This document shows, piece after piece, positions 7,973 through 34,348 of a stretch of 64,000 nt of DNA. The first letter of the stretch is position 1. Each line of letters opens with the position of its first letter. The position numbers and the translations under genes were made by a program. Under the pieces are notes generated by a model. The model saw nothing but the letters and a program-made list of their open reading frames with translations, searched no databases and was not told the origin of the DNA. Origin of the DNA: Yuukianura sp. NJ FZ-2021 (taxonomy: Eukaryota); NCBI GenBank assembly GCA_046563655.1, contig CM102283.1:124001-188000 (forward strand). Direction: 5' to 3'.

Positions 7973-8522
7973 CTTTTGACTTTAAGTTTGACTTTTACTT
8001 TGACTTTACGCGCGTAGTGGACAAATCATCGTTTGGATTTGAACTCTGACATTTCTTTGTGTCATTGACCGGCCTACCGCCTAAGGGTTCCCGTCTGAGC
8101 CCCATGTTGTAAGATAAGAAATTTTTGGTAGTGGTTACTTTAAGGGACAACTTTTCCGCTCTAACTTTGAACCCCCTTTTCCGTTCCTATAGTAGAGTGT
8201 AGGATCGGAGGTTTACCTCATTTATTTTTAGCTCAGCCGCGGGGGCTAGTCGTGCGCAATATTGGGGAGGGGAAAAGGGTCCCTCAAAATCTAAAAAGCT
8301 CCCAACGACAAAACATTGACAAAAATATCAACATAAAAAAAACGTTTTCCTTAAAGCGTTCTTTTCAAAACAACTTTTCTCAAGAAAAACGTTTTTGAAA
8401 ATTTTTAAAAATAGCATTAAAACATTGTTTTGAGTGCTACTTAAACAGAGAGCTTTGAAGCTAGAAAGTATCAGTTCTCAAATCAGCAAGCACTTTTCAG
8501 GGTAATAGAATTTATTGTCAAA

Positions 8523-9311
8523 ATGTCGAAGCGTACAGCGCCTCCGATTACTACTGAGTCAAAGCGTCAATGTACTGAATTATTCGACTTTGAACGACTC
8601 CGACTCCCCTATTTGGTGTATGTTGAAATTTTTTCAAATCTGGACGCGATTAGTGGAGCACAACTCATCAAAGCGTTTCCACAGTTCTCAAGTTTGCTAA
8701 AGCCTAAAATTTTGAGTTTCTACAAAAAAGTTTCTCCTTACGCAAAGTATGTGATCGAGTTCAAATCTGGAAATCAGCTCACGGGGCGAGAACCCTTTTT
8801 GCGTGTATTGAACAAGTTGAAGAATTTTCCAATTGGACGAGTTCTAACAGTTGAAAGCTTTATAGCCGAACTCGCGCAGTCTGAGGTAGTTAAGCTCGAC
8901 TATGAACTGTTCCGGAGGTATACAGTTGAGGTGCAGCTGCTGATGACAAACAAACTCGACTTCCAGCGTCGAGTTGGTTTTGATGACATCTATGTAGAAG
9001 CAAAACGTCGATATGTCAATGCTTTTGGGAGAGTTGAAACATTCGAGACTATATATCACTTGTGGAGTATATTCAATGGCGCTGGCGACAACCAAATGCT
9101 AGAAGAGTTAATTGACCGGACACGGAAAGAGGAAAATGATTTGTGGGATGTTCAAGACAAGAAAAACGCTTTAGATGCATACAAAAGCAAAAAACAAAAA
9201 CTTCAACGCTGGATTCGCCGCCGAAAAAAATTCAAGAAATGTCACAAATTGGTTTGTAAATGCCAAAGTGCATTATCGTCAGAAAGCTCTTCAGCGCTGG
9301 ATGAAGCGTGA
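8523..9311 (+). CDS. F-box-like protein, 262 aa (left arm of element A)
   Basis: N-terminal LPYLVYVEIFSNLD..SGAQL.KAFPQF resembles an F-box. Basic C-terminus. TCAGTT initiator-like motif at ~8472. Confidence 0.6.
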   Translation: MSKRTAPPITTESKRQCTELFDFERLRLPYLVYVEIFSNLDAISGAQLIKAFPQFSSLLKPKILSFYKKVSPYAKYVIEFKSGNQLTGREPFLRVLNKLKNFPIGRVLTVESFIAELAQSEVVKLDYELFRRYTVEVQLLMTNKLDFQRRVGFDDIYVEAKRRYVNAFGRVETFETIYHLWSIFNGAGDNQMLEELIDRTRKEENDLWDVQDKKNALDAYKSKKQKLQRWIRRRKKFKKCHKLVCKCQSALSSESSSALDEA

Positions 9312-9791
9312 AAACGTTGTAAAAGCAATTGTATAGCATCTCTTAAATATTGCAGTTATGTTAAATGTTAGTGTCAAAAAAATATAGTAATAATAATGGA
9401 ATAAATATTAAAACGTAAAGTGATTATAATAAAATTTTGGATCACAAAATTTTCGAAAAATTCAAATTTATTATTTTCCAGAATCAGAATAAACAGACAT
9501 GTACGTATTCATACAGTTCGCAACTTGAAAATACATTTAATAAACGGAATATACAAGCAGAGCCTATGGTGTGATTCAATATGATTGAAACGGGAATTTG
9601 ACGGTAGGCTCAGCATACACTGTTTTGTCATATTTTATGTTATCGAAAAAGCAAACGATGTTAACGGTACATATATTGCCCGCGAGAATAAAAGCGATAT
9701 AAGGCTTCATCGCGGTCTACCAATTTTCCCTTGTCCAGTTTGTTCGTTTTCAGGCTTATCCTGAACTGAATCTTCCTCTGTGCTCTCGTTC

Positions 9792-10412
9792 TCATTCATC
9801 AGAATCCTCCACAGTACGCCTCTTCTTTCTGGAATTCACTCCTTGAAACGATTGAAAGAGGTAATGTCTTGCCTCCGGTAATTCATGTATTGGAAATTTA
9901 CGGGATTTCATAAACCGAATCATTCCCGCAATCAATGAAACATTTAGCCTTCGCCTCCCATCACTAATAACACGAATTCCGTCTTCAAAGTCGTATCGCT
10001 GCATTTGTTCATCGCCAAAAACAACAGTTTCCCCTTGCAAAATGGCTCCATTATTCACAAAAAGCTGAAGCAGATTTTGTCCTGGTTTCGAAAAGTTTGA
10101 AAAATTGAAGTGTTGTTGCTCCAGAATCGGTTTTGACAACTCCGTCGGCTTGTATTCTAGTACGCCTTTTGCCTCAACTTCCAACGCCTTTGTGTCCTTC
10201 GAATCAACTAGCCTTTGCTGTTCCACCTTTCGTGTATTCTGGAACTGACGAAGAAGAGCATGGAGCATGTGGTTTTGAAGTTCAACTGATGTCTTTCTGG
10301 TGTCGAACTCGTCGTTCACTTTAAAGGGAATCGCTTCCTTTTTCTGTTCCATAGTCTTTGGACATGCAATTTTTGTATGCAGTCTCCATCGTTGTATTTT
10401 TCTTTCCGCCAT
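9792..10412 (-). CDS. Unknown protein in the unique centre of element A
   Basis: 206 aa ORF (possible true start MEQKK ~10351) immediately downstream of the ATPase fragment. Confidence 0.5.
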   Translation of the reverse strand: MAERKIQRWRLHTKIACPKTMEQKKEAIPFKVNDEFDTRKTSVELQNHMLHALLRQFQNTRKVEQQRLVDSKDTKALEVEAKGVLEYKPTELSKPILEQQHFNFSNFSKPGQNLLQLFVNNGAILQGETVVFGDEQMQRYDFEDGIRVISDGRRRLNVSLIAGMIRFMKSRKFPIHELPEARHYLFQSFQGVNSRKKRRTVEDSDE

Positions 10413-10580
10413 TCATTTGACGTCCCAGACAAGCAACAAACTGAGAGTCTCGAGGGTTCTTCATTAGAACCAAGTAATGGCAGTTGGCAGTAATTTCCTT
10501 TAAGTTCTCGTGAAAAAAGTTTTGCACAAGAATAATGAGCGACACATTGCGGTGGTGAGATGTTCTAGTGGTCAGTTCAT
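10321..10580 (-). pseudogene. C-terminal fragment of A32/FtsK-like packaging ATPase
   Basis: TRTSHHRNVSLIILVQNFF...ITANCHYLVLMKNPRD aligns by eye with the element C ATPase (TRTSHHRNVSIIFVTQNFF...ITTNCQYICFTKNPRE). Confidence 0.85.
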
Positions 10581-11022
10581 CTCATCGTCAGTTCAGGATA
10601 AGCCTGAAAACGAACAAACTGGACAAGGGAAAATTGATGACCGCGATGAAGCGTTATATCGCTTTTATTCTCGCGGGCAATATGTGTACCGTTAATATCG
10701 TTTGCTTTTTCGATAACATAAAATATGACAAAACAGTGTATGCTGAGCCTACCGTCAAATTCCCGTTTCAATCATATTGAATCACACCATAGGCTCTGCT
10801 TGTATATTCCGTTTATTAAATGTATTTTCAAGTTGCGAACTGTATTAATACGTACATGTCTGTTTATTCTGATTCTGGAAAATAATAAATTTGAATAATA
10901 ATTTAATATAATAATAATTTAATAAAATTTGAATAATAATAAAAAGTAAAAACAACAAACACGAAAATTTGCTCCTCATTTTTCAAGTTTTTTAAGACAT
11001 TCATTCATCATCTACCCAACTT

Positions 11023-14000
11023 TTGCTGATATCCTCCGAAGGCACTTCGTATAGTGATCAACTCGTGACAGGTTTCAAGAAAATACGTTACCACTTCAGC
11101 CTGTCCGGACCTGTTTTGTCACTTGGACGTCCAGTCACCGTCAACTGTCAAAGTTTTCAACAACAGCGGATCCTTCAACTCATCCCCATAGCAACTAATA
11201 TGGCTCAACGAAAATTGAAAAATCAAAGCAAAATGAAATCAACATCTATTTCCATAACTCCAGCTCCTGATTCTTCATCTGTGCAAACAATGTACAACAG
11301 TTTTTCAATAGCCGTTTCATCTAACGAAAACGCTTACAAAACCTCATCAACTCAAGCAGCCGTAGAATTCGCATCTAAAGTGTCAGCAGCTCCAGTTCAG
11401 AATGAAGTTTCTTCACCAGTTACTGCGTCAAATGGCTTCGGTTCCGACATCGTATCAGTTCCAGCTTCAAGTTCCTCCGGGTCCCATATTACATCAGTTC
11501 CAGCATCAAGTGATTCCGTTCCATCTTCAAATGACTATGGTTCCTGTATTGAATCAGTTCCAGCTTCAAATGACTATGGTTCCTGTATTGAATCAGTTCC
11601 AGCTTCAAATCACTATGGTTCCTGTATTGAATCAGTTCCATCTTCAAATGACTATGGTTCCTGTATTGAATCAGTTCCAGCTTCAAATGACTTTAGTTCC
11701 TGTATTGAATCAGTTCCAGCTTCAAGTTCCTCCGGGTCCCAAATTACATCAGTTCCCGCTTCAAATGACCCCGGTTCCTGTATTGAATCAGCTCCAACTT
11801 CAAAGGAGTCAGTTCCAGTTTCAAATGACTCCGGTTCCTGTATTGAATCAGTTTCAGCTTCAAATGACTTAGGCTCCTGTATTGTACCAGCCCCAGCATC
11901 AAATGACTTCGGTTGCCGTACTGCATCAGCTCCAATCACTGTTATTGCTTCAAGTTCATCCTCAATCCCAACTACCAATCAACACGTTTCCAGTCCTCCT
12001 TCTCTCACTAGAACACTCCAGAATCGCAAAATAACAGATGAATGGATTGCCAATAACATCATTTCGTCCGCCAGTGGCTCAATTCGAAAATTAGACGTCA
12101 AATCCAACTACCATCAATTTTGCAACTCTCTCAACATTCGCCCAGTCGTTGACACCACCTTCGGTACCAAACTACGAAAGTTATTCCCTTCGATGTCCAC
12201 AGTTCGTGCCGGAGGTCGCCGTCATTCCGAACAGTCATACTCTGGCATTGCTTGGAAGGATGTTTGCTCTTCGCCTGCTCGCAATTCCACAGAAGAAGAC
12301 CTAGGAAGCATCCTCGCAAAACTCAAACAATCCACACACACGATGAAGCACGTTCCTAAAGGAGCCAGGATCACTGCCGCGTCCAGGCTTTCAGACTTCA
12401 TTGATGAAGTGACTTCAACTAATTCCGTCGAGTCATGGTCAAACCTTTTGCTTTTCCCATTCTTCGCGTTTCGTCTACCTAAGAAGGCCGACCGTGTCAC
12501 CAACCTCACCTCCTGGGTAAAATCCTATATCTGCACCTTGTCACTTTCTTCGGCTCTCAACGTTTCAACGTTAATCTTGGAAACTTCAAGCACTCCACAA
12601 TCAAATTCAGCTATTCAGTCCAACATTATTCAATCTAAACTTGCTGATGGAGACATTCACGGTGCAGTTCGTATTTTATGTTCCGATGACTCAATGGCCA
12701 ATGAAGATTCTTCTACATTAGACGCTCTTGAAAGATTACATCCTCCTCATCCAATACCACTCCAGTTTCCAGATCGTCAACAATCACCTGAAGTTATCTT
12801 CGACGAACTCGAACTGCTAAAATCAATCTCTTCTTTTCCAAATGTTTCGGCCGGAGGTCTCGACTCTCTGCGACCTCAAGTTTTGAAAGAGCTAACTTCA
12901 AAAATTACTGGCGATTCCGGTCAAAAACTTCTGTCTTCCATAACGAAACTTGCAAACCTCATCATTAATAACACCATCCCTGAAGTAATCCGTCTGATCT
13001 TCTACGGTGCCTCTTTAATTGCACTCCAGAAAAAAAAGGTGGGATCCGCACTATCGCGATTGGATTGACCTGGCGCCGGATAGCATCAAAGCTTGTCTTA
13101 TCGAGATCAATGAAAGACATCGTCTCTTACCTAAGCCCGGTGCAAATTGGTGTAGGAGTCAACAACGGTACTGAAGCTGCAGCCCACGCCGCTAGGATCT
13201 ACGTCAATTCTCCACATTCTTCCAGTAAGGTCATGGTCAAGATTGATTTCAAGAACGCCTTTAACCTCATCAGAAAAGATCAAATGTTAGATTCTGTTAA
13301 ATCTCTCATTCCTGACTTCTATAACTTCATCCATCAAGCTTATTCATCCGACTCGAATTTATTTTACGGTTCTTCCAAAATCAAATCGAGCCTTGGAGTC
13401 CAGCGAGGCGATCCGATCGGTCCCGCCCTCTTCGCCATCACCATCCAGCCACTGGCAACAGCAATCCAGTCGGAGTTTAACGTATGGTATCTTGACGACG
13501 CAACCATAGCCGACAAGCCGGAAACAGTCCTGAAGTATCTGCAACATATCACCACCAACGCAGCTTCTTTTGGCCTACAACTTAACACACAGAAATGTGA
13601 GATTATCGTCATCGGTGGCGATGAAATGGAGTCCAGAGCCATCACTAGCTCATTTCTTTTGTTCGCACCTGATATACGTGTATGCAACGAAGAAGACGCT
13701 GAACTACTCGGAGCCCCATTATCCAAAGCTTCTGGACGACGAATCTTGAAGATGAAGATCGACGATTTCGAAAAACTTTCGTCTAAGCTGCTAGCTCTTC
13801 CGTCTCACGTGGCTTTTTTCTTACTCAGGGCTTCAATTTCGATTCCTAGACTGACATACTTCCTTCGCTGCGCACCATCATTTCTTGAAGAAGATCTACT
13901 GAAGGACTACGATGATTCTCTTCGTAAAGTTTTGGAAAAAATTCTCAACATAAGCCTTTCTGAAAATGCCTGGACTCACACATCTCTGCCGGTAGCACAA

Positions 14001-14987
14001 GGATGTTTGGGAATCCGCCAAGCTAACGATTGCGCTACGCTCTGTTTTCTGGCTTCAATCTTTAGCTGCGCCGACCTAATCACCTCCTTCCTACCCGGTA
14101 ACCTATCGCCTTTCGATGCATCGTACGACTTAGCAACATTCATATGGTCCAACGACGATTTTGATTTTCCATCTAATCACAAAGTTCAGAAGGAATGGGA
14201 GAAACTAAAGTCATCAAAAATTTACACTAGTCTGCTCAACAACTCCACCACTTTGACTGACAAAGCAAGACTAATTGCTGCCGCTGCTGCTCATTCCGGT
14301 GATTGGCTGAAGGCCCTACCCTCTTCACAACTGGGGACTCTTCTATCCAACGAATACTTCAGAATTTCGTGTTCCTTGCGACTTGGCACCAAATTATGTC
14401 TACCCCACCAATGTCGCTGTGGTGCAACTGTTAACGAAGACGGTCTTCACGGGCTGAGTTGTCCGGAAAGTGCAGGAAGACACTCAAGACATGGTTCAAT
14501 CAACGATATTATTGCTAAAGCCTTTCAAACAGCCGGAGTTCCTAGCCTGAAAGAACCTCCAGGTTGTTCTCGTTCGGATGGAAAACGCCCAGACGGCATC
14601 ACTTTGATACCTTGGAATACTGGACGTTGTTTGGTGTGGGACGTCACTTGCCGCGACACTTACGCCAACTCGTACCTTTCCATCTCCTCTTCTTCAAGTG
14701 GCTATCCTGCCGCTTTGGCTGAAATCCAGAAACACAAAGTGTATCAAGACCTAAATCATCAATTCATCGTCTCCATCATTGCTGTTGAAACTTCGGGGGT
14801 CTTCGGAGCCGAAGGACTAATTCTCATCAGGTCAATTGGTCAACGTCTTGCCGAGGTCACCGGTGAACTCCGATCCACCAATTTTTTACTTCAACGGATT
14901 AGCATCGCCATTCAACGTGGCAACTCCGCATCAATCCTTGGCACTCTTCCCCCTGGGAAAGGATTGGACGAAATTTTTTACCTCTAA
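11023..14987 (+). CDS. CRE polyprotein: repeat region, RFX-like domain, RT, CCHC finger, RLE endonuclease; frameshift in A-run at ~13030-13038
   Basis: KKGGIRTIAIGLTWRR restored across the frameshift; IDFKNAFN, GVQRGDPIGP, WYLDD; CRCG...HGLSC...RH; RPDG...WDVT. Confidence 0.9.
11440..11930 (+). repeat. 39-bp coding tandem repeat (SVPASNDYGSCIE), ~12 degenerate units
   Basis: Repeated tcagttccagcttcaaatgactatggttcctgtattgaa. Confidence 0.95.
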
Positions 14988-15242
14988 CTTTTCTCAATAC
15001 ATACTCTAAACCTTTTCAACCTGCCTTATGGCAGGTCCTTGTGAATTAAAGAATTACGAACAAAATAAAAAAAAAAATAAAAATAAATTTGAATTTTTCG
15101 AAAATTTTGTGATCTAAAATTTTATTATAATCACTTTACGTTTTAATATTTATTCCATTATTATTACTATTTTTTTTTGACACTAACATTTAACATAACT
15201 GCAATATTTAAGAGATGCTATACAATTGCTTTTACAACGTTT

Positions 15243-16024
15243 TCACGCTTCATCCAGCGCTGAAGAGCTTTCTGACGATAATGCACTTTGGCATTTACAA
15301 ACCAATTTGTGACATTTCTTGAATTTTTTTCGGCTGCGAATCCAGCGTTGAAGTTTTTGTTTTTTGCTTTTGTATGCATCTAAAGCGTTTTTCTTGTCTT
15401 GAACATCCCACAAATCATTTTCCTCTTTCCGTGTCCGGTCAATTAACTCTTCTAGCATTTGGTTGTCGCCAGCGCCATTGAATATACTCCACAAGTGATA
15501 TATAGTCTCGAATGTTTCAACTCTCCCAAAAGCATTGACATATCGACGTTTTGCTTCTACATAGATGTCATCAAAACCAACTCGACGCTGGAAGTCGAGT
15601 TTGTTTGTCATCAGCAGCTGCACCTCAACTGTATACCTCCGGAACAGTTCATAGTCGAGCTTAACTACCTCAGACTGCGCGAGTTCGGCTATAAAGCTTT
15701 CAACTGTTAGAACTCGTCCAATTGGAAAATTCTTCAACTTGTTCAATACACGCAAAAAGGGTTCTCGCCCCGTGAGCTGATTTCCAGATTTGAACTCGAT
15801 CACATACTTTGCGTAAGGAGAAACTTTTTGTAGAAACTCAAAATTTTAGGCTTTAGCAAACTTGAGAACTGTGGAAACGCTTTGATGAGTTGTGCTCCAC
15901 TAATCGCGTCCAGATTTGAAAAAATTTCAACATACACCAAATAGGGGAGTCGTTCAAAGTCGAATAATTCAGTACATTGACGCTTTGACTCAGTAGTAAT
16001 CGGAGGCGCTGTACGCTTCGACAT
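15243..16024 (-). pseudogene. Inverted copy of the F-box-like gene (right arm of element A), frameshifted
   Basis: Near-identical to 8523-9311, with a 6-bp deletion and a 1-bp loss in an A-run splitting it into 74 + 186 aa. Confidence 0.85.
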
Positions 16025-17229
16025 TTTGACAATAAATTCTATTACCCTGAAAAGTGCTTGCTGATTTGAGAACTGATACTTTCTAGCTTCAAAGCTCTCT
16101 GTTTAAGTAGCACTCAAAACAATGTTTCAATGCTATTTTTAAAAATTTTCAAAAACGTTTTTCTTGAGAAAAGTTGTTTTGAAAAGAACGTTTTAAGGAA
16201 AACGTTTTTTTTTGATGTTGATATTTTTGTCAATGTTTTGTCGTTGGGAACTTTTTAGATTTTGAGGGACCCTTTTCCCCTCCCCAATATTGCGCCCGAC
16301 TAGCCCCAGCGGCTGAGCTAAAAATAAATGAGGTAAATCTCCGATCCTACACTCTACTCCTATCCTTACGTTTATTCTCGGGCCCTTGGCAGTTCCACCT
16401 TAGAAGGGGGTTTCTTCCCTTCCAAGGGCCGACCGGTCACTCAAGGTCACGACTTGACCCCTTTTACATCTGGTAGTATTAGAATGAAGGTGGCCTCAGT
16501 TGATCAGCTACTCCAGCCTGTTGTTGATTTCGAGTACTCCAGCCCGAAAATCCAGATTCCCGCACCCCAGTGCCGCACCAAACCAACTCCACACGAACCA
16601 ACCAGTACTTACTACCAATAATTCATGCCGCGGTACACAGCAATTTAAGGGGTCACCAACCCCGTGACATGAGACTGAGATGTTGTGAGTTCAATTCCAA
16701 ACAACCAAAAGAGAAACGCGCCGCGCCGCTTTACCGCGCTCAAATCGTAAGGTTAATGTGAAAAACCAATGTGCAAAACCAAATGAGAAAACTCTAATTG
16801 AAAACCAGTAACGGAGAGAATCCACAGCAGCAGGCGGGTATCCCGACCACATCTGCCCATCCACCAGCCATCATTCCTTGAGTGCATGGAAGAGAGCCTC
16901 TACCTGCCTTCTCCCATGGAAAAGGCCCCCTCAACCATGTACTCCTTTCCTTATTTAAAACAACAGAAGAAACAGCAGCTGATACTAAATGACCTTAGTA
17001 CTAATCAACTTTCTTGTGGGAGTTGATTAGTACTAAGTTTGAGTTAATCGGAGTTCCCTAACTTTAGTTAAAATTCAATTAATTAGTTGTGGTTGAGTTT
17101 GTGTTTTTTCCTGGCTTTAGTCCTGGTAGTGAAAAGAAGAAAAGTGGCAGAGGTGTCCCCACAGTACCAATAGAGGGCGCGCGCTTCTCCCTTTCTTATG
17201 AACATGACGCTATTTTTGTAGTCTCACAA

Positions 17230-17531
17230 CTGGAAGAACGAGGGGAACAAAGTTCGTGCCATGATTCGCACCTTTGGAATTGCTACTTTGTTTGTGACCA
17301 TTAGTGCTGCAGAGTTGAAGTGGAACGAGCTCCTGGTGTTGTTGAAAGAATTCTTGATTCGAAATTTCTGAACAGGAGGCTCAGCAGTTACCTAACTCTG
17401 AGAAGGCAATTTTAATCCAGAGAGATCCGATCACTTGCGCCCGTTAGTTTGACAACCGTTACTCTGCGCTGAAGACGACTTCATCGCTCCCGAAATGGAC
17501 CTTTTGGTAATCGTGAAATCCGACACTTCTA
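17230..17531 (+). pseudogene. Helentron Rep, motif 1 segment
   Basis: WKNEGNKVRAMIRTFGIATLFVTISAAELKWNEL...DPITCAR*FD. Confidence 0.85.
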
Positions 17532-18261
17532 AGTTAGTAGACAATGCGAATCATCCGCTTCCTATTATTGATTTTTCTGGATCGATCAATACCTTATTGT
17601 TTCATCCCCTTGTGTCATTATGTTCTTTTCCTTACCCCCCCCCCCGTCGCCGTCGGCCGCCGCCGCTCTCGTGTGGATAGCGGAATGGTGTGGCGTCCTT
17701 TTTCGGACGTTGTTGACGCAGTTTGTGATTGGTTGGGAGGGGAGGAGTTTAGAACTTTTTTGGTGGGAAATTTAGAAAACGTTTTCTTTCTGGTCATTTT
17801 GGCGCGAGTTTGGAAAAACGTTTTTTGTCCGTTTTCTCATGCTTTCGTCATAGAGTTGTAGATGGCGCTGTGGTTGGTTCAGTTTTTTTGGATTGTGAGT
17901 GATATATCTCGTAGCGAATGGAGCCCCTTTATCAGGTGGAGCCGTTATAACAGATGGATTATATGTTTAAAGTGTGGGGAATATTTTTGTTCAGTATGGA
18001 ATGTTTTTAAACTATGGGGAACACTTTACTCTATAGGGCTGAACGTGGAAATGTAGGGAAGGTTTTTGTAGTGTGGGGAAGATTTTTTATTACATAGGGG
18101 CTGGAAATGAGTATATAGGGCGTTTTTTAATAGTGTAGGGGCTGAATATTTTTATACAGGGAAGGTTTTTGAAGTATAAGGAGTCTCGTTATTATTTCTT
18201 TTATCTCGTGAGCGTTTTGGAATTCGCACTCAGTCGAATAAGGAAAACTCACCAGAGAACA

Positions 18262-18948: not shown

Positions 18949-18967
18949 TCATTCGGCACAATCCAAT

Positions 18968-22899: not shown

Positions 22900-23086
22900 A
22901 TCTCAAACAAATGCTAGAAAGTAAGTAGTATTATGAACTTGAATGTCTCTTTTCTTTAAAATAAACTCGTAAAAAACATCGTCTCGACAAATACAACAAT
23001 TAATCTTTTAAATTACTAATTCAAGTTCCAGACGAAACTTGTTGCGGAGTACTGCCGTCTATTACAACAGAACAACATGCTAACCA

Positions 23087-23314: not shown

Positions 23315-23971
23315 GCAACACGTCTGAGCTTCGGAACAAGAAATGGAACATGACATCACCACATCTCAAAAACTTTCAATACATATTCAATTCCAGCCAT
23401 CTACAGTAAAATCTCCCCATACTTTAAAAACATTCCCCACAGAAGCAAAAACGCCCCCTCCCCCGCTTTTATTAATAATAATTTAGGACATCTGTCATAC
23501 GGGCTCCACACGTGAAATATGCTAAACTTGTTATAACGGCTCCTTTTGTTATAACGGCTCCACCTGATGAAGGGGTTCCATTCGCTACGAGATATATCAC
23601 TCACAATCCAAAAAAACTGAACCAACCACAGCGCCATCTACAACTCTATGACGAAAGCATGAGAAAACGGACAAAAAACGTTTTTCCAAACTCGCGCCAA
23701 AATGACCAGAAAAAAACGTTTTCTAAATTTCCCACCAAAAAAGTTCTAAACTCCTCCCCTCCCAACCAATCACAAACTGCGTCAACAACGTCCGAAAAAG
23801 GACGCCACACCATTCCGCTATCCACACGAGAGCGGCGGCGGCCGACGGCGACGGGGGGGGGGGTAAGGAAAAGAACATAATGACACAAGGGGATGAAACA
23901 ATAAGTATTGATCGATCCAGAAAAATCAATAATAGGAAGCGGATGATTCGCATTGTCTACTAACTCTTCTA

Positions 23972-25395
23972 CGAAAGAGTGGAATTCCAGAACCGTGGAA
24001 GTCCTCACGTTCATGCCATGTTCTGGCTCTCCGACGCACCAACCTTCAACTCGGAGAATGCTTGTCATGATGACATGACGACTTTTATCGACAGTATGAT
24101 AACATGGGGTACAGACTACCCTCCGGAGGATCCAATCACTGGTCTACTATCTCTCCAGACTCATCGCTTGCCACACTTGCACTTCCACAGACACTTGCCA
24201 CAAGCGAACAAACAAGGGAGTCAAATGTCGTTTTGGTATACCCTTCTTTCCAATGGATAAAACTCGGATCCTTGTACTTCTGGAAGACACAGCACAACTC
24301 AAGGATCTCAAGTTATTACACAAAACTATTCGAGATTTTTTGGAAAATCAAGTTCTAGACACCGGAATGTCATTCGAAGCATTTCTGGAAGCAATAGGTT
24401 GCGATCTTCACTTGTATCTAAAAGTGATTCAGACGAAATTGAAGAAGCCACATGTGCTTTTGAGACGTAAACCCAACGAAGTCTATATTAACGCCTACAA
24501 TGAGAAGATTTTACGGCTACAAAAGCCAAACATGGACATTCAATTTATTCTGGATCCGTACGCATGCTGCAGTTACATCGTCGACTACATCAATAAGAGC
24601 AATCGAGGGCTTTCGGAGCTGTTGCGGAACGTGGTAGAGGAAGTGAAGAAAGGTAATGCGCCTCTGAAAGACAGTCGACAAGCTATTGGAGCGGCTCATA
24701 ACTTGAACAGCGAACTTTCGGCCCAGGAGGCAGCTTACAATGTTCTGCAAATGCCAATGAGCTACTCTTCAGAAAAATGCGTTTTTGTACAAACCGGACC
24801 GGCCAGCCATCGTACAAGAATGTTGAAGTCGCAAGCGGATCTGTCACAATTGGATCCAGATGACCAAGATATTTTCTTCAACAGTCCGACGGACCACTAT
24901 TCTCAGTACCCAATTGAATTAGAGTCATTCAATCTTGCTCAGTTCTCTGCTTGGTTTGAGCTCTCAAAAACATTGAGGCGACCCGTAGCCGAACCGAACG
25001 AGGAAACAGAAACTCTTGTGGCTGAAGAAACTGGATCAGATGTTTACAAGCTGCGCGACGGGTCAGGGTATGTTCGCAAGAGGAAATTCCCAAAAGTAAT
25101 TCGATTTGTCCGTTACAACAAGGAAAAGGATCCAGACAACTTCTTCGGAGAACTCCTGATGCTATACAAACCCTGGAGGGACGAAGGGAAAGAGTGTGGG
25201 GAAGATACGGACTGTCAGAAAATTGTTGCTGAAAATATTGACTTGATAACCAGCAACAGAAAGGAGTTTAATTTTTTTGACCACTGCATACTTGATGCTG
25301 CCATGGAAGAGGTACTGACAAGACCAAAAGGAGGTGAAGTTGAATTGGATGAAAACCAGCCTTCCGTGGATGAGCTGCGTGAGTATCGACTGTAA
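23972..25395 (+). pseudogene. Helentron Rep (HUH motif 2 onward), frameshifted
   Basis: VEFQNRGSPHVHAMFW; NMDIQFILDPYACCSYIVDYINKS; SAQEAAY; LMLYKPWR. Confidence 0.92.
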
Positions 25396-26278
25396 GATGC
25401 ATCTGGAGCTAACGCGGTTTATTTCGGTTCATACGAAAGACGGGCATTCGCAGAAAGTTTCAAGACTCCAGCGTTGACCACCGATGATGAATACTGGTCG
25501 CTGCTAGCTTCTTTGAATGACGAACAGCGAGACTTGGTTTACCACACTTTTGATCACGTAAAGAGACATGAAAGCTCGGCATTTCACATCTACTTAAAGG
25601 GAGGAGCGGGTGTCGGAAAATCCCATGTCATCAAAACGCTGCATCAGGGATTGGTCAGAATTCATAACTCTGATGTGAATTGTAAACCCGACAAAATCTC
25701 TGTCCTTCTGGTGGCTCCAACTGGGAAAGCGGCCTTCAACATTGGAGGCTCCACTCTTCACACAGCATTTCAGTTACCTGTGAACCAACGCGAAGCTGGG
25801 ACCCTTTCGGCTGATGTGTCCAATACGATGGCTGCAGCTTATTCGGAACTGAAGGCATCACTCTCATATGTGCTTCTCATTGTTAAATGATGGTAATTGG
25901 AATTATTAATCTTTAGATCGTTATCTGTGATGAGATTAGTATGGTGGGAGAACATTTACTGGAACAAGTTGACAAGCGCCTGCGTGATCTGTTTACCGCA
26001 CATATACCTTTTGGCGGCATATCCTTCATTGCAGTCGGAGATTTCTATCAGCTACCGCCAGTTTTGGCTGTCCCGTTGACGCATGTGACAATGAGGAATG
26101 CTATTTCTTCATTATTCCATCGGCATCTCTGGCATCACTTTTATGTGCACGAGTTGACCATAATCTTGCTCCAAAGTGAAGATATCGCCTTTGCTGTGGC
26201 CCTCAACAACAAGGTCAGGGGAATAATGACTGATACAGATAAGGAACTGATGCGGAGCCCCTGCTTCGACACTCTGCC
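25396..26278 (+). pseudogene. Helentron Pif1-family helicase, N-terminal part (intron 25855-25916 with GC donor)
   Basis: GGAGVGKS Walker A; APTGKAA; spliced ELK|IVICDEISMV Walker B; PFGG; GDFYQLPPV. Confidence 0.92.
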
Positions 26279-26664
26279 AGTAGGTAGTATGGTAGGACTT
26301 TCACGCCAAATCAACCTTTGGACCCATAAGGTTTAAAACCCACTGGCGTGAGATCCTTATGACTAGACTAATTAAGACTTCCTTTTCTTAATTAACACTT
26401 CCTTTTCTTAAGACCAATTAAGACTTCTAAGACTAATTAACGCTTCCTGCTATTTAATTAGTACCTTTGTCCGTTGACAATATGAGGCGGAGGAACACGA
26501 AAAAAGGTGGGATTCCTGGGTAACCAATTCTGTTTGGGGGTTGGCTTTTGCTAGGGGGTCGGCAGATGTAGAGGCTATATTTAACCACCAAATTTTACGG
26601 AGACCTTCAGTCTCTGCACAACTCCTCAACAGTCCTATTGTCCTAAACAGTTGCTATTGTTATA

Positions 26665-29496
26665 ATGTCGAAGCGCCAAGGAACACCAATTGTTGGGCCA
26701 TCTAGTAAACAATTTAATTGCATACTGTGCGCTCAAGGGTTTGCTTCTCGAGCAATATTAAAACTACATTTCGACGCTGTCCATAAAAACTGTCTTGAAC
26801 CAGCACCGCCGGGTTACGATGTCACAAATGAGAGTATTCTACAAGAATATCGCCACTTGTTCTGTTGGCAATGTGGTATACCATTTAATTGTCGGACTAA
26901 ACTTCAAGAACATTTCTACACCACTCATCCAGACTTTAACATTCAAGATGGCGGAGGAATTTCAACCAATCCTATATCTGTGACTTTAGTGCTGGAATCT
27001 CTAAAAATGAGTCGCAAGTACATGGCAGACTTTGATACATTTCCATGTGGTGAAGGTGTCGACGAGAGAGATTTCTTCGCAAATGTTAAATTATCATCCT
27101 ATGAAGTCATCAATGAAGACATCTCCAGATGGAAGAACTTAAGGATATTTTTTACCTTGGGGTGTCACTTCACCAAAACGCACGCAGATGGAACGGTTGA
27201 ATCAAAGGATGTCGGATTCACCTCATTTCGACACCTTGTCTTCAATGCAACCATGCTACCTAAAGTTTGGTCAGTCATGTGCAGTCAAATGTCAGATCAA
27301 ATTGAAGATTTCACAAATGAGGGCAGCGGCTGGACTCTCGACTCCATTCAAAAATTTGGATTTGTCACATCAAAGTATCAATTCACCAAGATTGGTACAT
27401 ACATGGAGAGGGAGACCCCGTACCCACTATCGACTCAAAAAGTTCTGCTTAACATCAACAACAGCAAAGTGTCAATGGACAATTCCCACAACAAATGCTT
27501 CGTCTGGTCAATACTCGCGCATGACAAAATCGGTGGTATTCCGGTTGGAAAAAATAACCATAGGTGTCGTATTGACAAGCTTGTGAAAACATACCAGCCA
27601 AATGAATACAAGTTGAACACTAAAGGAATCCATTTTCCGATGACTCTGGAACTCAACCCGAACATTTCTATAACCGTTCTTGGGTATGACATGGATGGTG
27701 ATGACATGATTTTACAGAAGCTCAGCAAAATTGAATCATTCAATTTTATACAAAGCAAGATCTCAATACTGTACAACTCCAAGCAGTCAAAAGATTTACA
27801 TGTGGACCTCAGGAGTGGAATTGGAGCTAATCACGGATCCAACCATGCATTGCTGGCTGGAGCATGCTATTAGAGGTAAAACCTAGCAGACAAATGGTAG
27901 AGATTTTCTAATTCATTTTATTGATAGGTGGATACGTTAGCGTTGGATCCATGCGAGAGGCTAGAGCGAACAACAAGTACATGGGAGATGAATACGATCC
28001 AGAAAAGGAATCCAGTTACCTCATCTACATCGATGCCAACAACTTATATGTACGTATTCAACAACGTCTATGAAAGATTATTATCTAAAATTTAATTATT
28101 CACTAGGGCAAAAGCATGAGTCTTCCGGTTCCAACTGGTCAGTTCCAATGGCTAACAGAGAAGGAGTTGATGAAACTTCAAGAAAACCACTTCATCATGG
28201 ACAATGAAAAAGGATACATGCTTGAAGTGGATTTGGAAATTGATCCTTCATTGCATGACAAGCTGAATGATTTTCCTCCGGCTCCAGTTAACCGTACAGC
28301 TGCAGAGAGTGAGTTGTCCAGTCACCAATTACAATTGACGGAAAAACTCGACATAGGTCCTGGAATTTTCAAAGTTAAGAAACTTGTGGCTGATCTGAAT
28401 AATAAGAAGAACTATATTCTACATCACGCCATTTTGATGGAGTACCTGAAGCTTGGAGTTAAAGTTACAAAACTTCACCGCGGAATTTCCTTCAAGCAGA
28501 GACCATGGATGAAGGACTTTATCGACTTTAACACCGAAATGAGAAAAAAGGCAAAGTCAGACTTTGAAAAGGATTATTGGAAACTCCTCAACAATTCTGC
28601 ATTTGGTAAAACAATCGAACAAGTACGCAAGGGTCAGAATGTCCGAATCGTTACATCAATGGAAGAAGCTCTACGTTACAACAAGAAACCCACCGTCCAG
28701 AATGTCATCCCAATTAACGAGTCAACATGCATCTTTATGATGAAGAGACTTCAAGTTACTTTGAACAAACCGATATTTACGGGGGTAACAGTGCTTGAAC
28801 TGGCGAAGAGCATCATGTATCGACATCACTACACTATACAGGCGAAATATGGCGTCGACAAGTGTCGCCTTATTTATACTGACACAGGTAAATGTTATAC
28901 TATTCAACAATTTAACTTTAACCTAAAGCTAACTTTTTATTTCAGATTCCTTCATCTATCACATCCAAACTGATGACGTTTATCAAGACATGCTCCAAGA
29001 CAAGGACTTGTATGACATGAGCGAATATGAATCTGATCACCCCATTTTCGGAGAGTTTCACGATCCCACAAACAAAAAAGTTTTGGGAAAATTCAAAGAT
29101 GAGGCTGCCGGTTCGGTAGTCACTCATGTCGTTTGTCCTCGTCCAAAAATGTACACCATTAGGTCCTTGAAACTTCAAGTTTACAAAGGATTTGATGGAA
29201 AAAATATTTACCAAAAGAAGACTGATGGTAGCTGGTTTATCAAAGACGAATACACGAAGAAGGTCAAAGGGATAACTAAAACTGCTGTCAACAACCAAAT
29301 AGCATATGAAGATTTCGAGAAAGTCCTTAAAGAAGATGTTCAAACTCGTGTATGGATGAGAGGATTTAGAAGTGTAGAGCATAGAATTTTTACAGAAGTA
29401 ACGTTAAAAAGGGCTCTGAACGGTTTAGATACCAAACGATATGGTGTTGATAGAATTAACACATTAGCATTTGGACATAGAGATATTTCTCAATAA
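26665..29496 (+). pseudogene. polB: Intron-containing Polinton-type pPolB with two N-terminal C2H2 fingers; exonuclease region deleted at ~27808
   Basis: GSGW and KCFVWSIL N-terminal motifs. Introns 27876-27927, 28050-28106 and 28888-28945 restore IRG|GY, YIDANNLY|GKSM and YTDT|DSF. Also KLLNNSAFGKT, RPKMY, KKVKGI, TLAFGH. Confidence 0.92.
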
Positions 29497-29551
29497 TTTA
29501 TTTTGACTTGTGTGAAAAAATGTTAGGTTGTAAACTGAAAACAATAAATGT

Positions 29552-29989
29552 TTATAAAACCATTTTGTTCAGCATTTTTAAAAATTCTGCTTTGTTAATA
29601 TTGATTACATTTCTTATTCCGGCTTTTACAACGGCTATTAAATAATATAATTGACTTGAATCCAACTTGTCGGATGATTCCTCTTCATCGTCATCTGAAT
29701 CAGAATCAGAATCGTCTGCGCCTTCCACAAGCTTGCGTAAGCTCTCCAAAGTCAGCCATTGAACTCCAACATCTGCATTGTGTAGCGCAAGAAGGATTAA
29801 CGATAAGCTGGATTTACTCATGCCGGAATGTGCCTTAGAGTCATCTTCTTCTTCAGTTTCCGTTTCTGCTTCAGTTTCCGTTTCTGAGTCAGAATCCATA
29901 GCTTCGTCTGAATGAGCAACACGATTATGTCGATGTAATGCGTCAGCGCGGGAAAATGACTTGGAACAAATGTCACAGTAAACCGGCAT
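29552..29989 (-). CDS. Small C2H2 zinc-finger protein with acidic tracts
   Basis: CDICSKSFSRADALHRHNRVAH followed by D/E-rich runs. Confidence 0.75.
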   Translation of the reverse strand: MPVYCDICSKSFSRADALHRHNRVAHSDEAMDSDSETETEAETETEEEDDSKAHSGMSKSSLSLILLALHNADVGVQWLTLESLRKLVEGADDSDSDSDDDEEESSDKLDSSQLYYLIAVVKAGIRNVININKAEFLKMLNKMVL

Positions 29990-30029
29990 GATGTACAAAT
30001 GCAACTGAACATTTTTTTTCCCGATTGCA

Positions 30030-30190
30030 ACGGTTTTATAGTGGTGGTGGTGGTGGTGGTACCTCCTCCTCCTCCTCCTCCTCCTCCTCCTCCTCCTCCT
30101 CCTCCTCCCTCCTCATCTCCTCCTCCTCCTCCTCCTCCTCCTCCTCCTCCTCCACGTAGGCTTATCAGGTGGTGGTGGTGTATATAAAGC
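30030..30190. promoter_or_regulatory. Putative bidirectional promoter: (CCT)n microsatellite flanked by (GGT)n and outward-facing TATA boxes
   Basis: TATAAAA on the minus strand at ~30033-30039 and TATATAAA on the plus strand at 30181-30188, between two divergent zinc-finger ORFs. Confidence 0.55.
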
Positions 30191-30257
30191 GTTGGTGTGA
30201 TGAGGGAGGTAAGCCACTTCTGTCCCTCATCTTTTGTGTTCCAGCATTCACAACAGT

Positions 30258-31020
30258 ATGGATTGTAGTGTTTGCAACAGTTCGTTCACACGTTCGGATA
30301 ACCTTAAACGCCATGTATATACTGCACATAAGCAAACCGATGATACTACATCGGATCATGATACCACAGCGGAACGTGATGAGTGTTTTGATTATAGGCT
30401 AAAGGCGCCATTCTGCATGACAATTAGCGGAGCAAGCCAAAGTGGAAAGTCGACGGTTCTTAAGGAATTACTCCTTCGACGTTTTGAAATGGTGGATGTT
30501 CCGATTAATGATATTCTGTATTGTTATGGGGAGCCAGAGAATGAATTTTTCAGGATCTGAAAAGTCACATCCCAACAATTAAATTTCACTACGGATTACC
30601 AGACGACTTTGCGAGCCCTACAACACTCATCGAATCGTCGTACTTGACGATCTTATGCATGAAGTTTGTGCTAGTAAGGATATCGTCTCAGCATTTACTA
30701 GAACGAGCCACCACAGGAATGTGAGCATAATTTTCGTCACCCAAAACTTTTTCGAGAAAGGACAACGAACGATAACAACAAATTGCCAGTATATTTGTTT
30801 CACAAAAAATCCTCGAGAAGTCTCTCAAGTTCTCTGCTTTGGACGTCAGCTAACAAAAAACGGAAAACGTAACGAAGCTCTGGAAACGTGCTATGAAGAC
30901 GTTATGAAAAAGCCGTATGGTCATGTATTTATCGACCTGCACCAATCCCAGGATGATAGGTTTAGAATCCGTAATAATATATTTCCCGATGTCGGATGTA
31001 CTGTGTACAGAAATAATTGA
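30258..31020 (+). pseudogene. C2H2 finger fused to A32-like packaging ATPase, frameshifted at ~30550-30630
   Basis: MDCSVCNSSFTRSDNLKRHVYTAH; Walker A GASQSGKS (30429-30452); Walker B IVVLDDLM; SHHRNVSIIFVTQNFF; KNPRE. Confidence 0.88.
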
Positions 31021-31095
31021 AATAATTCTTAAAATATAATAAATACATAAATAAATCAGAAATAATACATTTTATTTGACTTGAATAAAGACCGT

Positions 31096-31806
31096 CTAGC
31101 AATCTCTTTTGCCATGAAAAGTAATTTTCCAGATTATGTCACTGGAATATTTCTCTAGTCGAATACTCTCAAGTACAGCAAGTTCTCTCTTACCATAGAA
31201 ACTATCTATTCCCCATTTCCATCTGTTAATTTCCATTTGCTGGTGCTTAGTAACGTCCAATACATGTTGACTGTAGTTTGATGTATTAATTGCTGTGCAG
31301 CAACAGTTGAACTCGCCAAAAATGCTCCTGCAAGGATCAATATCCAATTTGTTGTGACAGGATCGGAACGCCTCATTGCGGAGTTTCTCGATGTAGCTGC
31401 GTTTAGTTTCATGAATCAGCATGTCCAAAGATTCCTCCAAATATGTGATAGGAAAACATCCACATTTTAGAAGTGACTCAACCAGCTGAGGAATATGGTC
31501 TAAATCGATCATAACGGGCGCGCCGCTTCGGATAAGGATGACACGAAATGATGCGTCCTTGATAAAATGAATCAGCAGTAGTGGTTCATCCGGCGAGTAT
31601 TCCTTTGGTGGATTACTACGGTTCTGCAATAACAGCTTCTCAAAATGTGGAAGATGCTTAATCATCCTTCCTTCTTCAATATATGCTTTGACTAGTTCTT
31701 CTACAACGGTTGGTAGCTCCTCGGATAAGAACATAATTGAATTTCCAGAATTCTTGACGCCAATAAGACCCTTGCTTAGATGGACTTCCGGTAGGCTTAC
31801 GTCCAT
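31096..31806 (-). CDS. Unknown protein, element C paralogue family member 1
   Basis: 236 aa ORF; LLLIHF...VILIRSG.PVMIDLDHIPQLVESL weakly resembles the two ORFs below. Confidence 0.65.
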   Translation of the reverse strand: MDVSLPEVHLSKGLIGVKNSGNSIMFLSEELPTVVEELVKAYIEEGRMIKHLPHFEKLLLQNRSNPPKEYSPDEPLLLIHFIKDASFRVILIRSGAPVMIDLDHIPQLVESLLKCGCFPITYLEESLDMLIHETKRSYIEKLRNEAFRSCHNKLDIDPCRSIFGEFNCCCTAINTSNYSQHVLDVTKHQQMEINRWKWGIDSFYGKRELAVLESIRLEKYSSDIIWKITFHGKRDC

Positions 31807-32489
31807 TCTTGGAAAATGTGTAAGAGCAATAGTAACAAATTTAGGACAATAGTAAAACTAATGATGGTGGAACTGTGTAGGTGGCACTGGGGTCTCCCAC
31901 AAATGTGGACAGCATTAAATCTCTGTTCGTTAAAAAGGTATTGGTCCAAAAAACGTTTTTGTACAAGAGCCAATCATATACAATTTGTTGGAGGCGAGGG
32001 AGTTAACTCCACCCAATGTTAACGGACAAAAAAAAATGAATTAGTTCAGTTTTAACTGGAAGTCTTAATTAGTCTGAAGAAGGAGCTGTTTTGACGTGAC
32101 GGTCAGTTTAATTTAGCTTAACATGGAGGCACTTTCGTACTCAACCGGTATTGATCATCCCTAAAAACGCCAATAAAGTTTTGAAAAATGAACCATGTAT
32201 TATCTTACATTTAAATTCCAGATTCTAACCAACCGCCTTATCCATATACTTTCTCTTTAGTAATCAAACAAAAATAAATGTGTACGACAGAAAATCCAAG
32301 AAAATTGTTTCATTAAATTCACTCCTCTCGAGGTCCTATGATCCAATAAGAAATTATTGTGATATAAATTGTATTGTTTATAGACACGTGGATATTTTTT
32401 TTTTTAATTACATCTAAACAGGATAGAGTAAAAGAATTATTGTAGTGTATAAGAAATACTGGTGAATCGTCTTGAGTGCAAGAGTCTTC

Positions 32490-32951
32490 CTATTTTGATT
32501 TGTTGTAGACAATAGTCTCATAAACAGTTTCAAGATATTCGGGCTTGGTGTCTTGTCCGTCAGTAGCCTCAGCGTCTTGTGGCATTTCCTGCATTTCCTG
32601 TAGGTCTTGTTTTACCTGCCATGCGTGAGGAGTCGACTTGTCGCGACAACTCCAGAATGTCCGGGAGGCTGAAGTGGCATATTCATGCTTCAGCGTCATG
32701 AGATGCTGTTCCGTGTCGTGTGTAATCTGCATGAGTGGCAACTCTCTCGAATCACCGCCATTCTCCATGTAAATCTGGAAGAGGTATCCGATGAGTTTCG
32801 GCACATCTTCAAAGTCAATGGCGGTAGCGCTCCTGTTTTGTCGTATATTGATCGCCTTGTCTTCGCCACGTTTGCTAAACCAGCACAATAATAGCTTGTC
32901 GTTCACTGGCCGAGGTCTAGTTTGCCGGCTGATAGATTTCCTTGAGGCCAT
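32490..32951 (-). CDS. Unknown protein, element C paralogue family member 2
   Basis: KAINIRQNRSATAIDFEDVPKLIGYLFQIYMENGGDSRELPLM. Confidence 0.7.
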   Translation of the reverse strand: MASRKSISRQTRPRPVNDKLLLCWFSKRGEDKAINIRQNRSATAIDFEDVPKLIGYLFQIYMENGGDSRELPLMQITHDTEQHLMTLKHEYATSASRTFWSCRDKSTPHAWQVKQDLQEMQEMPQDAEATDGQDTKPEYLETVYETIVYNKSK

Positions 32952-33187
32952 TGTTTGAAACTTAACAGCGAAAATGGCAGTATTGAGCAGAGTGTGGATG
33001 TCGTTGTCCTGGTTTCCAGTTGCAGACTACAGTGATGTAGTCTACGTAGTCTACGCCGATGTTTCTGACCAACTGAATTTGTATGGACCCCAAGGTATGT
33101 ATGGCTCATTCCGAGTGTACTACTAGACTAGTGTACAATTTTACAAATACAATTCTAGTAAAATGTAGAAATACTTTTATTGTAGTT

Positions 33188-33799
33188 TAAAAAGGAAGTC
33201 TGAATTCTAAATCTGGGTCTTCGTATACTGTAAACGTTTGATACAGGACATTCTCTCCGAGTGCTCGTTGTCGCTTTCTTACTTGTCGCCATGCTACAGT
33301 TGGAGTGGCTGTCGTACCATTTTCCGAATCAAGTTTATAGTCGGTCGATTTATCGCCACGCCAAGATCAATTCTCCGTAGAAGAACTCTATTGGTTCTTC
33401 TTTTATGTCCTCTTCTGATTCTTCTGGAATCGTCTTCCAGTGGTTAATGTCCACGCCATACTTGTTTCGAATCGAAAGAAGCGTGCTGTTTTTTTGGCGA
33501 TAGACTTTCATTCTGGGCAGTTCCTTTACCTTTCCGCCGTTTCGAAGATAGACGTGAAACAGATTGGCAATGAGCCCTGGGATCGATTGAAAATCCACCG
33601 CGGCAGTCGTATCGTGTTGTTTAATATAGACTGCTTTCAACTCCTTTGGACCCCACTTTCCCAAGAAACAATCCAAAGGTTCTGGAAACTTTGGCATTCG
33701 CTTTCTCAGTTGCTTATAACTTGGCCATTCGAACCCTTCTGGGAATGTAATACTGCACGGACACTGGTCAGACTTGATGCTACTAGGCGGAATTTCCAT
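33188..33799 (-). CDS. Unknown protein, element C paralogue family member 3 (ORF 33350-33799; probable frameshifted tail to ~33188)
   Basis: KAVYIKQHDTTAAVDFQSIPGLIANLFHVYLRNGGKVKELPRM. The shifted tail TPTVAWRQV...TVYE resembles the member 2 tail TPHAWQV...TVYE. Confidence 0.65.
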
Positions 33800-34348
33800 T
33801 GGTTACTATTTCCCTAAACTTTTGTCTGGAGGTTCGACACAAGGAGATGGAGAAAGGGGTAGGGTTTTTAGTTGCTAATTCTAGGGTTCTTCTGTATTCG
33901 GTAAAAATCCTGTTGCAGCCTTCCTTGGTTCTGATTTGCTGTGTATCGTCCACAAATGCCTGGTGGAATTTGTTCTTTAAGATTGGAGATAGCTGTGAAG
34001 CTGTCAAAGTAACTGACCATTTAGACTTCATCGTCTCCTTTTAACCGTTTTGGTCAAGGTATTCAGGACTCTCATTGGATAACCAAAACTCCTCCCCATG
34101 GATTCCTGTGTCCAAGGTGTTAACGGACATAGTGTTAACGGACAAAGGTACTAATTAAGCTCGATCACTGGAAGCGTTAATTAGTCTTAGAAGTCTTAAT
34201 TGGTCTTAAGAAAAGGAAGTGTTAATTAAGAAAAGGAAGTCTTAATTAGTCTGACTTTGATAAGTCATTAGGATCTCACGCCAGTGGGTTTTAAACCTTA
34301 TGGGTCCAAAGGTTGATTTGGCGTGAAAGTCCTACCATACTACCTTCT

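Follow-up and report, generated by a model that had tools for sequence, protein, structure and literature searches.

A 64-kb stretch of eukaryotic DNA rich in transposable elements (TEs) from Yuukianura sp. NJ FZ-2021 (assembly GCA_046563655.1, contig CM102283.1, positions 124,001 to 188,000; the analysed stretch is hereafter called the window) contains three compact Maverick/Polinton-like elements, termed here A, B and C. These elements are probably (with a probability of roughly 0.7) independent non-autonomous derivatives of different Maverick/Polinton lineages that were integrated by a helper and gathered in a TE-dense region. B is the sole candidate for a maintained form, and A and C are either defective or in decay. 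The usual description of Mavericks is of autonomous virus-like transposons of 15-25 kb; on their dependent offshoots little has, to our knowledge, been published. The limits of the elements were set by an inverted-repeat search and inspection of the ends, and they bear out the coordinates proposed in an earlier note on this DNA, which had described three AGT-ended elements with terminal inverted repeats (TIRs) and target-site duplications (TSDs) of 5-6 bp:

8191-16358: element A, 8168 bp gross and 3986 bp net, with TSD CCTAT at 8186-8190 and 16359-16363
17532-23965: element B, 6434 bp, with TSD CTTCTA at 17526-17531 and 23966-23971
26279-34348: element C, 8070 bp, with TSD CTGCC at 26274-26278 and 34349-34353

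The short termini read AGTAGAG in A, AGTTAGTAG in B and AGTAGGTAG in C, and the longer terminal sequences are AGTAGAGTGTAGG, AGTTAGTAGAC and AGTAGGTAGTATGG, respectively; the right arm of C starts AGAAGG, which is a single mismatch at base 3. TIR lengths are 1579 bp in A, ~430 bp in B and ~206-221 bp in C, and the two arms are 99.2% (outer part) and 98.4% (inner part) identical in A, 97.5% in B and 96.6% in C. The rule that Polintons have 5'-AG...CT-3' termini reportedly goes back to Kapitonov and Jurka in 2006. All three elements have AG...CT termini with a TSD of ~6 bp, and all three have long TIRs. A 6-bp TSD and a long TIR are typical Polinton features (PMC3014272; this and the other papers are cited for the sections drawn on here). 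The 5-bp TSDs of A and C can also be read as 6 bp, with a T that precedes the left copy and matches the terminal T of the element, and they reflect either a true 5-bp cut or one terminal nucleotide common to element and target. The ends of all three elements display a GTAG-like reiteration, most plainly in C (A-GTAG-GTAG-TATG-GTAG); it would suit a slide-back start of protein-primed replication.

The clean TSDs indicate that A, B and C were integrated. As the earlier note held, they lack integrase and capsid genes: rve integrase, capsid and protease families have no match among 110 open reading frames (ORFs), namely 21 large ORFs and 89 further ones of at least 55 aa, a set from which the ORFs of a retrotransposon in A and those scanned before were omitted. 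The 89 further ORFs gave three chance-level family matches and nothing else. As a positive control, rve and a chromodomain were detected directly upstream of the polymerase of a distant relative at metagenome locus L001. With rve absent from the 110 ORFs, A, B and C are not autonomous Polintons by the published definition (PMC5499653, in the part used here). No space for further genes, such as one for a capsid, is left in A and B, and the orphan ORFs of C (149-236 aa) are too short for a double jelly-roll (DJR) capsid protein; a small penton-type protein in C is not formally excluded. Helper dependence, which the earlier note had proposed, is indirectly well supported, with clean TSDs yet no integrase detected in any of the three elements, and mobilisation in trans is the natural reading for Maverick derivatives that have no integrase.

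In the explanation favoured here, each element would have kept its cis-acting ends (TIRs and AGT-type termini with GTAG-like reiteration) and would have been integrated at a staggered cut of 5-6 bp, for which putative autonomous Mavericks of the same genome would have provided an rve-type integrase in trans. A would be a ~4-kb defective genome, for which a strand switch (snap-back) in protein-primed replication is the most economical origin; such a switch would invert and duplicate the left arm, which would account for gene-bearing TIRs of 1.58 kb, and the ATPase gene would have been severed where the switch took place. C would be a Maverick of a resident intron-bearing lineage without its middle genes, ~400 polymerase codons and its ATPase reading frame. 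B may be compact from end to end, with only a left-end cargo gene for a membrane protein and a right-end polymerase gene. A dead Helentron beside other TE debris would have tolerated or attracted the insertions.

The gene content of B consists of two genes, ORF1 and a polymerase gene, both of which are intact:

17532-17960 and 23541-23965: TIRs of B, each with two AAAACGTTTT palindromes
18262-18948, plus strand: ORF1, 228 aa
18968-22899, plus strand: polymerase gene, with a 19-codon leader exon (18968-19024), a 74-nt GT-AG intron (19025-19098) and an ORF at 19099-22899

The polymerase gene starts 19 nt past the ORF1 stop codon (18948 to 18968). The ORF1 translation has a hydrophobic signal-like N-terminal leader, three N-x-S/T sites and a single C-terminal membrane span, so that the product reads as a membrane protein; searches for ORF1 homologues and for PDB matches were empty. 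Two 33-nt repeats at 17758-17829 in the TIR contain TTTTGGCGCGAG / TTTTGGTGGGAAA, which we take to resemble E2F-type sites, and about nine G-rich units (GTGTGGGG / TATAGGG ... TTTTT) occupy 17960-18200 upstream of ORF1.

The polymerase of B has, in order, a zinc finger, an OTU-like Cys/His domain, a C2HC finger, an HNH (endonuclease VII-like) domain and a protein-primed B-family DNA polymerase (pPolB) domain. An exhaustive search gave 4290 homologues at E<=1e-3, of which 477 reach E<=1e-30; among 14 homologues that were scanned, 3 carry PF03175, 5 carry Endonuclease_7 (HNH) and 6 match no family. A profile was made of 115 homologues of 1100-1320 aa, drawn from 154 proteins, in which 94 columns are conserved at >=85%. 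B spans this profile from end to end and has the consensus residue in 61 of the 92 conserved columns that it covers, compared with a family median of 97%. Four catalytic motifs are altered: Exo I is YFKFF instead of YADFE (D and E replaced by K and F), Exo III is ICNAE instead of YLxxD (Y and D replaced by I and E), motif C is SHTDS instead of TDTDS (HTD for DTD) and KxY is GTAQY instead of RAKMY (A for K). The Asp of motif A, the K/N/G of motif B, the second Asp of motif C and the HNH residues (CxxC, HxH, CN) are kept.

The replacements in Exo I, Exo III, motif C and KxY are common to P0005, P0006, P0007, P0010, P0013, P0021 and P0022 where the columns are covered. In a polymerase tree of 121 rows, from which fragments covering <70% of columns 722-1175 were removed and which is biased towards the best matches to B, B clusters with P0005, P0006 and P0021 with a support of 1.0; within this clade the residues of Exo I and Exo III are gone and motif C is H/N-TDS. 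Of the 115 full-length homologues, 12 likewise have neither Exo I residue. In pPolBs linked to an integrase, all of the Exo and Pol motifs are reported to be retained (Jeong et al., PMC10748475, in the sections drawn on). To judge from its motifs, the B polymerase can hardly proofread and would at best copy DNA without proofreading. Its ORF is free of stops over 1266 codons, a feature that, at such divergence, speaks for ongoing selection on the protein. A search with the B-clade alignment yielded one distant metagenome locus at 21% identity, and the same search of viral contigs gave no matches; the contigs of the nearest relatives of B, from ENA, are up to 8.5-9 kb long.

A consists almost entirely of duplicated arms and an inserted non-long terminal repeat (non-LTR) retrotransposon, a long interspersed nuclear element (LINE):

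8191-9769, plus strand: left TIR, 1579 bp, with a 262-aa ORF at 8523-9311 and two AAAACGTTTT palindromes at 8339 and 8386
9792-10412, minus strand: core ORF, 206 aa, of which 10283-9810 matches P0155 aa 351-501 at 33% identity (E 4e-20)
10348-10569, minus strand: ATPase remnant, 74-75 aa, corresponding to P0155 aa 167-240, 86% identical to P0155 and 52% to C (tblastn with the C ATPase)
10588-10896, minus strand: inner part of the right TIR, which pairs with 9460-9769
10897-15078, plus strand: non-LTR retrotransposon (LINE) in the right TIR, with an RFX-type DNA-binding domain in ORF1 and a reverse transcriptase in ORF2
15079-16358, minus strand: outer part of the right TIR, with a frameshifted copy of the 262-aa ORF (15243-15845 / 15800-16102)

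The left TIR (8191-9769) thus pairs with 10588-10896 and 15079-16358, its right arm being split by the LINE, which has a poly-A tail and a TSD of ~13-16 bp. Without the LINE, A measures 3986 bp, of which the unique core is only 818 bp. Each TIR has one copy of the 262-aa ORF, intact on the left and frameshifted on the right; this ORF has no Pfam-type family and no PDB match, and an AF2 single-sequence model of it (mean pLDDT, a per-residue confidence score, of 39) was unusable. In the LINE, the RFX-type domain of ORF1 (10996-13068) is matched at E 3e-11, and an array of tandem repeats of 39 nt at 11378-11934 encodes Ser/Pro-rich units.

The undeleted form of the ATPase gene of A is displayed by P0155, an environmental JGI metagenome protein of 527 aa from a contig of 1761 bp, which carries PF04665 and has a zinc finger, an ATPase and a ~260-aa C-terminal extension. 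The A gene is twice deleted relative to it, with P0155 aa 1-166 (zinc finger, Walker A, Walker B) and aa 241-350 gone, and the 206-aa ORF is, to judge from its match, the C-terminal part of such a P0155-like zinc finger-ATPase gene. The ATPase remnant begins <=19 nt from the inner TIR edge at 10588. With the ATPase remnant devoid of Walker motifs and the other ORFs without an assigned family, A therefore has no intact replication, packaging or integration gene. A truncated gene abutting a long, near-identical and gene-bearing inverted duplication is what a strand switch in protein-primed replication would be expected to produce.

C has more genes, several of them broken:

26665-27873, plus strand: N-terminal part of the polymerase (profile positions 50-278), with two C2H2 fingers and the start of the OTU-like domain
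27764-29496, plus strand: C-terminal half of the polymerase (profile positions 685-1175), four exons
29552-29989, minus strand: C2H2 zinc-finger protein, 145 aa, with an acidic tail
30258-31020, plus strand: C2H2-finger and A32-like packaging ATPase, with Walker A GASQSGKS and Walker B VVLDD
31096-33802, minus strand: three orphan ORFs of 236, 153 and 149 aa, counted from ATG

In the C polymerase, profile positions ~279-684 of 1199 are deleted (~400 residues, comprising the HNH domain and the greater part of the exonuclease), and a frame change coincides with the deletion junction at ~27764-27777. Its GT-AG introns of 52-58 nt lie at 27876-27927, 28050-28106 and 28888-28945, the last two of which split motifs A and C. 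The C-terminal half keeps the consensus catalytic residues and agrees with the consensus at 53 of the 57 conserved columns covered. The ATPase has a weak Pox_A32 match (18.7 bits, under the cut-off of 22.8) and is 57% identical to the PF04665-bearing P0155, with which it is colinear only if two frame changes are allowed, at ~30552 (beside a T5 run) and at ~30600-30625; these changes are due either to decay or to assembly error. P0156, a gene model from a nematode, has an ATPase of this type and carries PF03175 as well.

Among the orphan ORFs of C, those of 153 and 149 aa form a paralogous pair (35% identity across 88 aa, E 1e-17). The 149-aa ORF found no match in the Atlas, a profile with its 178-aa paralogue found none in the PDB, and the 236-aa ORF has PDB matches at chance level only (E 0.17). 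An AF2 single-sequence model of the 236-aa ORF had a mean pLDDT of 33 and was unusable. A motif that by eye seemed common to the C paralogue domain, the 206-aa ORF of A and P0155 was aligned by profile comparison at a probability of 0.6% and was rejected. Between the divergent zinc-finger and ATPase genes lies a G/C-rich simple repeat (29990-30210) that translates to poly-Gly, poly-Arg and poly-His. The TIRs of C contain arrays of a 20-bp TAATTAAGACTTCC unit, of which one further internal copy lies at 32059.

The three elements are distinct in most respects, and they share one short palindrome. The earlier note regarded their TIRs as otherwise unrelated; the termini do differ past AGT, but A and B have paired AAAACGTTTT palindromes, and the first 30 terminal nucleotides of A and C are identical at 19 positions by manual count. 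All nine copies of this 10-bp palindrome (extended form RAAAACGTTTTY) in the 64 kb lie inside A, B or C, at 8339-8395, 16152-16208, 17776-17824, 23675-23722 and 31950-31959; 0.38 copies are expected, and >=9 were found in 0 of 100 shuffles. Counting TIR pairs once leaves five independent sites. Each TIR of A has two copies (148 and 195 nt from the end), as does each TIR of B (244 and 283 nt from the end), with a spacing of 39-47 bp within the pairs, and C has a single internal copy at 31950. The palindrome is situated 137 nt upstream of an ORF start in A (second copy) and 144 nt upstream of the first orphan ORF in C, a similar distance that makes a shared promoter or factor-binding element plausible.

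Gene sharing between the elements is more limited than the earlier note had it. A and C do have homologous packaging ATPases (52% identity), but only a remnant without Walker motifs is left in A, and the C gene has two frame changes. A zinc-finger pPolB is indeed found in both B and C, but that of C lacks ~400 residues and has a frame break and that of B has altered catalytic motifs; the two polymerases are 25% identical and fall in different clades. A has no pPolB, and B has no packaging ATPase. No relatives of the B polymerase, the C TIR, the A TIR, the C ATPase or the whole stretch were found among the other scanned windows.

The setting of B and C is a single decayed Helentron, as the earlier note proposed:

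17231-35853, plus strand: decayed Helentron with Rep, PIF1 helicase and endonuclease, interrupted by B and C

Its pieces at 17222-17531, 23964-26336 and 34532-35853 give matches to Helitron_like_N and REP (weak), PIF1 (up to 5e-14) and Exo_endo_phos (weak), and the combination of an HUH Rep, a PIF1-type helicase and a C-terminal AP-type endonuclease is that of a Helentron. The B insertion splits the Rep domain, and the motif ...EIRHFY/ERVEFQNRGSPHVH (the slash marks the site) runs across when B and one TSD copy are taken out; the C insertion splits the PIF1 helicase, with the frame preserved over the site. The Rep motif and the helicase frame thus continue over both insertion sites, and the Helentron itself carries stops and frameshifts. 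A, which was said to lie in a long terminal repeat (LTR), is situated instead between two direct repeats (5479-6127 and 16695-17230) and within neither copy; it is 336 bp upstream of the right copy, which adjoins the Helentron, and ends 1168 bp upstream of the B site. The direct repeats are 93-96% identical with a 108-bp indel and have no TG...CA ends; the left one overlaps the end of a copia-type gag ORF, and their LTR nature is unclear. The three insertion sites span ~3.5 kb of pre-insertion sequence, so that the cluster of three elements in 26 kb noticed earlier is real, but the window as a whole is nested TE debris. Insertion tolerance of dead TE DNA would be a sufficient, if unproven, explanation of the clustering; a trap or hotspot, as envisaged in the earlier note, may have had the same effect.

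Small elements of this kind could also be left behind if three complete Mavericks had inserted and later lost their middles through host deletions, without ever having been mobilised as minis. C shows ordinary decay, with frame changes and an internal polymerase deletion, the surroundings are old TE debris in which the Helentron carries stops and frameshifts, and the LINE was inserted into A afterwards. However, in-situ decay needs three separate large deletions that each spare both TIRs. The truncated gene of A abuts the inner TIR edge and its 1.58-kb arms are 98-99% identical, which a replicative rearrangement fits better, and the genes of B are both intact and 19 nt apart, with no gene fragments at a junction. 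Decay in place is thus fairly unlikely. A self-sufficient B, in which the HNH (endonuclease VII-like) domain of the polymerase cuts the target so that no integrase is needed, would agree with the intact HNH motif residues (CxxC, HxH, CN) and with the presence of no other enzyme in B. It is nevertheless highly improbable: the HNH domain is family-wide and occurs even in polymerases beside rve integrase (L001), a 6-bp TSD with AG-type ends is a Maverick integrase signature (PMC3014272, as far as used here), and the catalytic motifs of B are degraded.

The earlier note envisaged a multipartite or satellite system, in which B or C would supply the polymerase and A or C the packaging ATPase, while capsid would be obtained elsewhere, with a common trap locus. 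The gene sets of A, B and C do differ, AAAACGTTTT is paired in the A and B TIRs and internal in C with 9/9 copies inside the elements, and the B polymerase clade retains long ORFs. Complementation is nonetheless hard to reconcile with an A ATPase that has lost its Walker motifs, a broken ATPase and polymerase in C, termini that differ past AGT, B and C polymerases that are 25% identical and in different clades, and the lack of relatives of A, B and C among the other scanned windows. No sign of complementation was found, and the three elements do not present the common conserved termini together with complementary intact genes that characterize a multipartite virus. Such a community is quite improbable, and the claim is not upheld. 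A bolder variant starts from the B clade, with its lost Exo I and Exo III residues and H/N-TDS motif C: B could belong to a lasting two-gene, polymerase-only lineage of Maverick satellites without proofreading, living in a community of complementing defective elements that share the AAAACGTTTT pair and a common helper. We consider this unlikely.

The preferred reading remains that A, B and C are independent helper-integrated derivatives, and several points weigh against it. Complete elements could have been inserted first and deleted later in the case of C and, conceivably, of B, and the frame changes in the C ATPase, the first of them beside the T5 run, could be assembly errors. Of 92 conserved polymerase columns B matches no more than 61, so that any enzymatic competence of it would be putative. 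Pfam covers capsid genes poorly, and the three orphan ORFs of C match no family.

Comparison with known systems places the elements close to autonomous Mavericks/Polintons (polintoviruses, adintovirus-like), with which they share TIRs, AG(T) termini, 5-6 bp TSDs, short spliceosomal introns, a pPolB with an N-terminal extension (OTU-like, zinc finger, HNH) and an A32-like packaging ATPase. They differ in having 4-8 kb rather than 15-25 kb, in that no rve integrase, detectable capsid module or protease was found, in the broken genes of A and C, and in a B polymerase without exonuclease catalytic residues. Adenovirus and linear plasmids are protein-primed replicons with defective genomes that bear extended inverted terminal duplications. 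A resembles these in its inverted arm duplication, which flanks a short unique core and has a truncated gene at its junction; unlike them, it is chromosomally integrated with a TSD, and its proposed origin is read from anatomy only. Like MITEs (miniature inverted-repeat transposable elements) and internal-deletion DNA transposons, A, B and C keep cis-acting ends, have lost the transposase and would be mobilised in trans, whereas their parent is a virus-like self-synthesising element and B keeps a replication gene.

Polintons that lack polB are still mobile in Pieris butterflies, where gene-bearing TIRs of ~2 kb occur (Pannagram preprint, 10.1101/2025.02.07.637071, in the sections drawn on). 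These are likewise TIR-flanked non-autonomous Maverick derivatives with internal TE insertions and gene-bearing TIRs, but, as far as those sections go, they keep integrase and capsid and lose the polymerase, whereas the reverse is seen here, with the polymerase kept in B and C and the elements known from sequence alone. The label "non-autonomous" has also been applied to Tlr1 among Polintons/Mavericks (PMC5499653, same part). Mobile non-autonomous Polintons are thus already known, and polymerase-only minis were not found in the literature searched, as far as the sections drawn on go. That search, with Kapitonov and Jurka (2006) and Repbase reports outside its scope, found no description of integrase-less and capsid-less polymerase-only minis and, within the same limit on Repbase reports, none of an exonuclease-dead clade of animal Maverick polymerases.

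The locus may bring together three routes by which Mavericks shrink, namely a defective genome of snap-back-like type, decay of the ordinary kind and a compact form with polymerase and cargo, and it points to an exonuclease-dead branch of Maverick polymerases. The common palindrome AAAACGTTTT could mark a recognition site of a helper or of the host. Should such minis prove multi-copy, eukaryotes would have in them an equivalent of defective interfering genomes and of the satellites of phages. TE annotation is also concerned, as Maverick searches based on integrase or capsid overlook minis of this kind.

The remainder of the window consists of gypsy-type and copia-type fragments and other repeats. 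RNA genes were not found in the window, with 0 Rfam hits and 0 genes in a tRNA scan. An intact 1198-aa ORF on the minus strand (44758-48351) matches no Pfam family and only unnamed clusters in the Atlas; it sits between composite LTR-like direct repeats of ~2-3 kb (41515-43573 and 53023-56209). Just downstream of the Helentron region, a 59-bp unit is repeated three times in tandem at 37911-38116.

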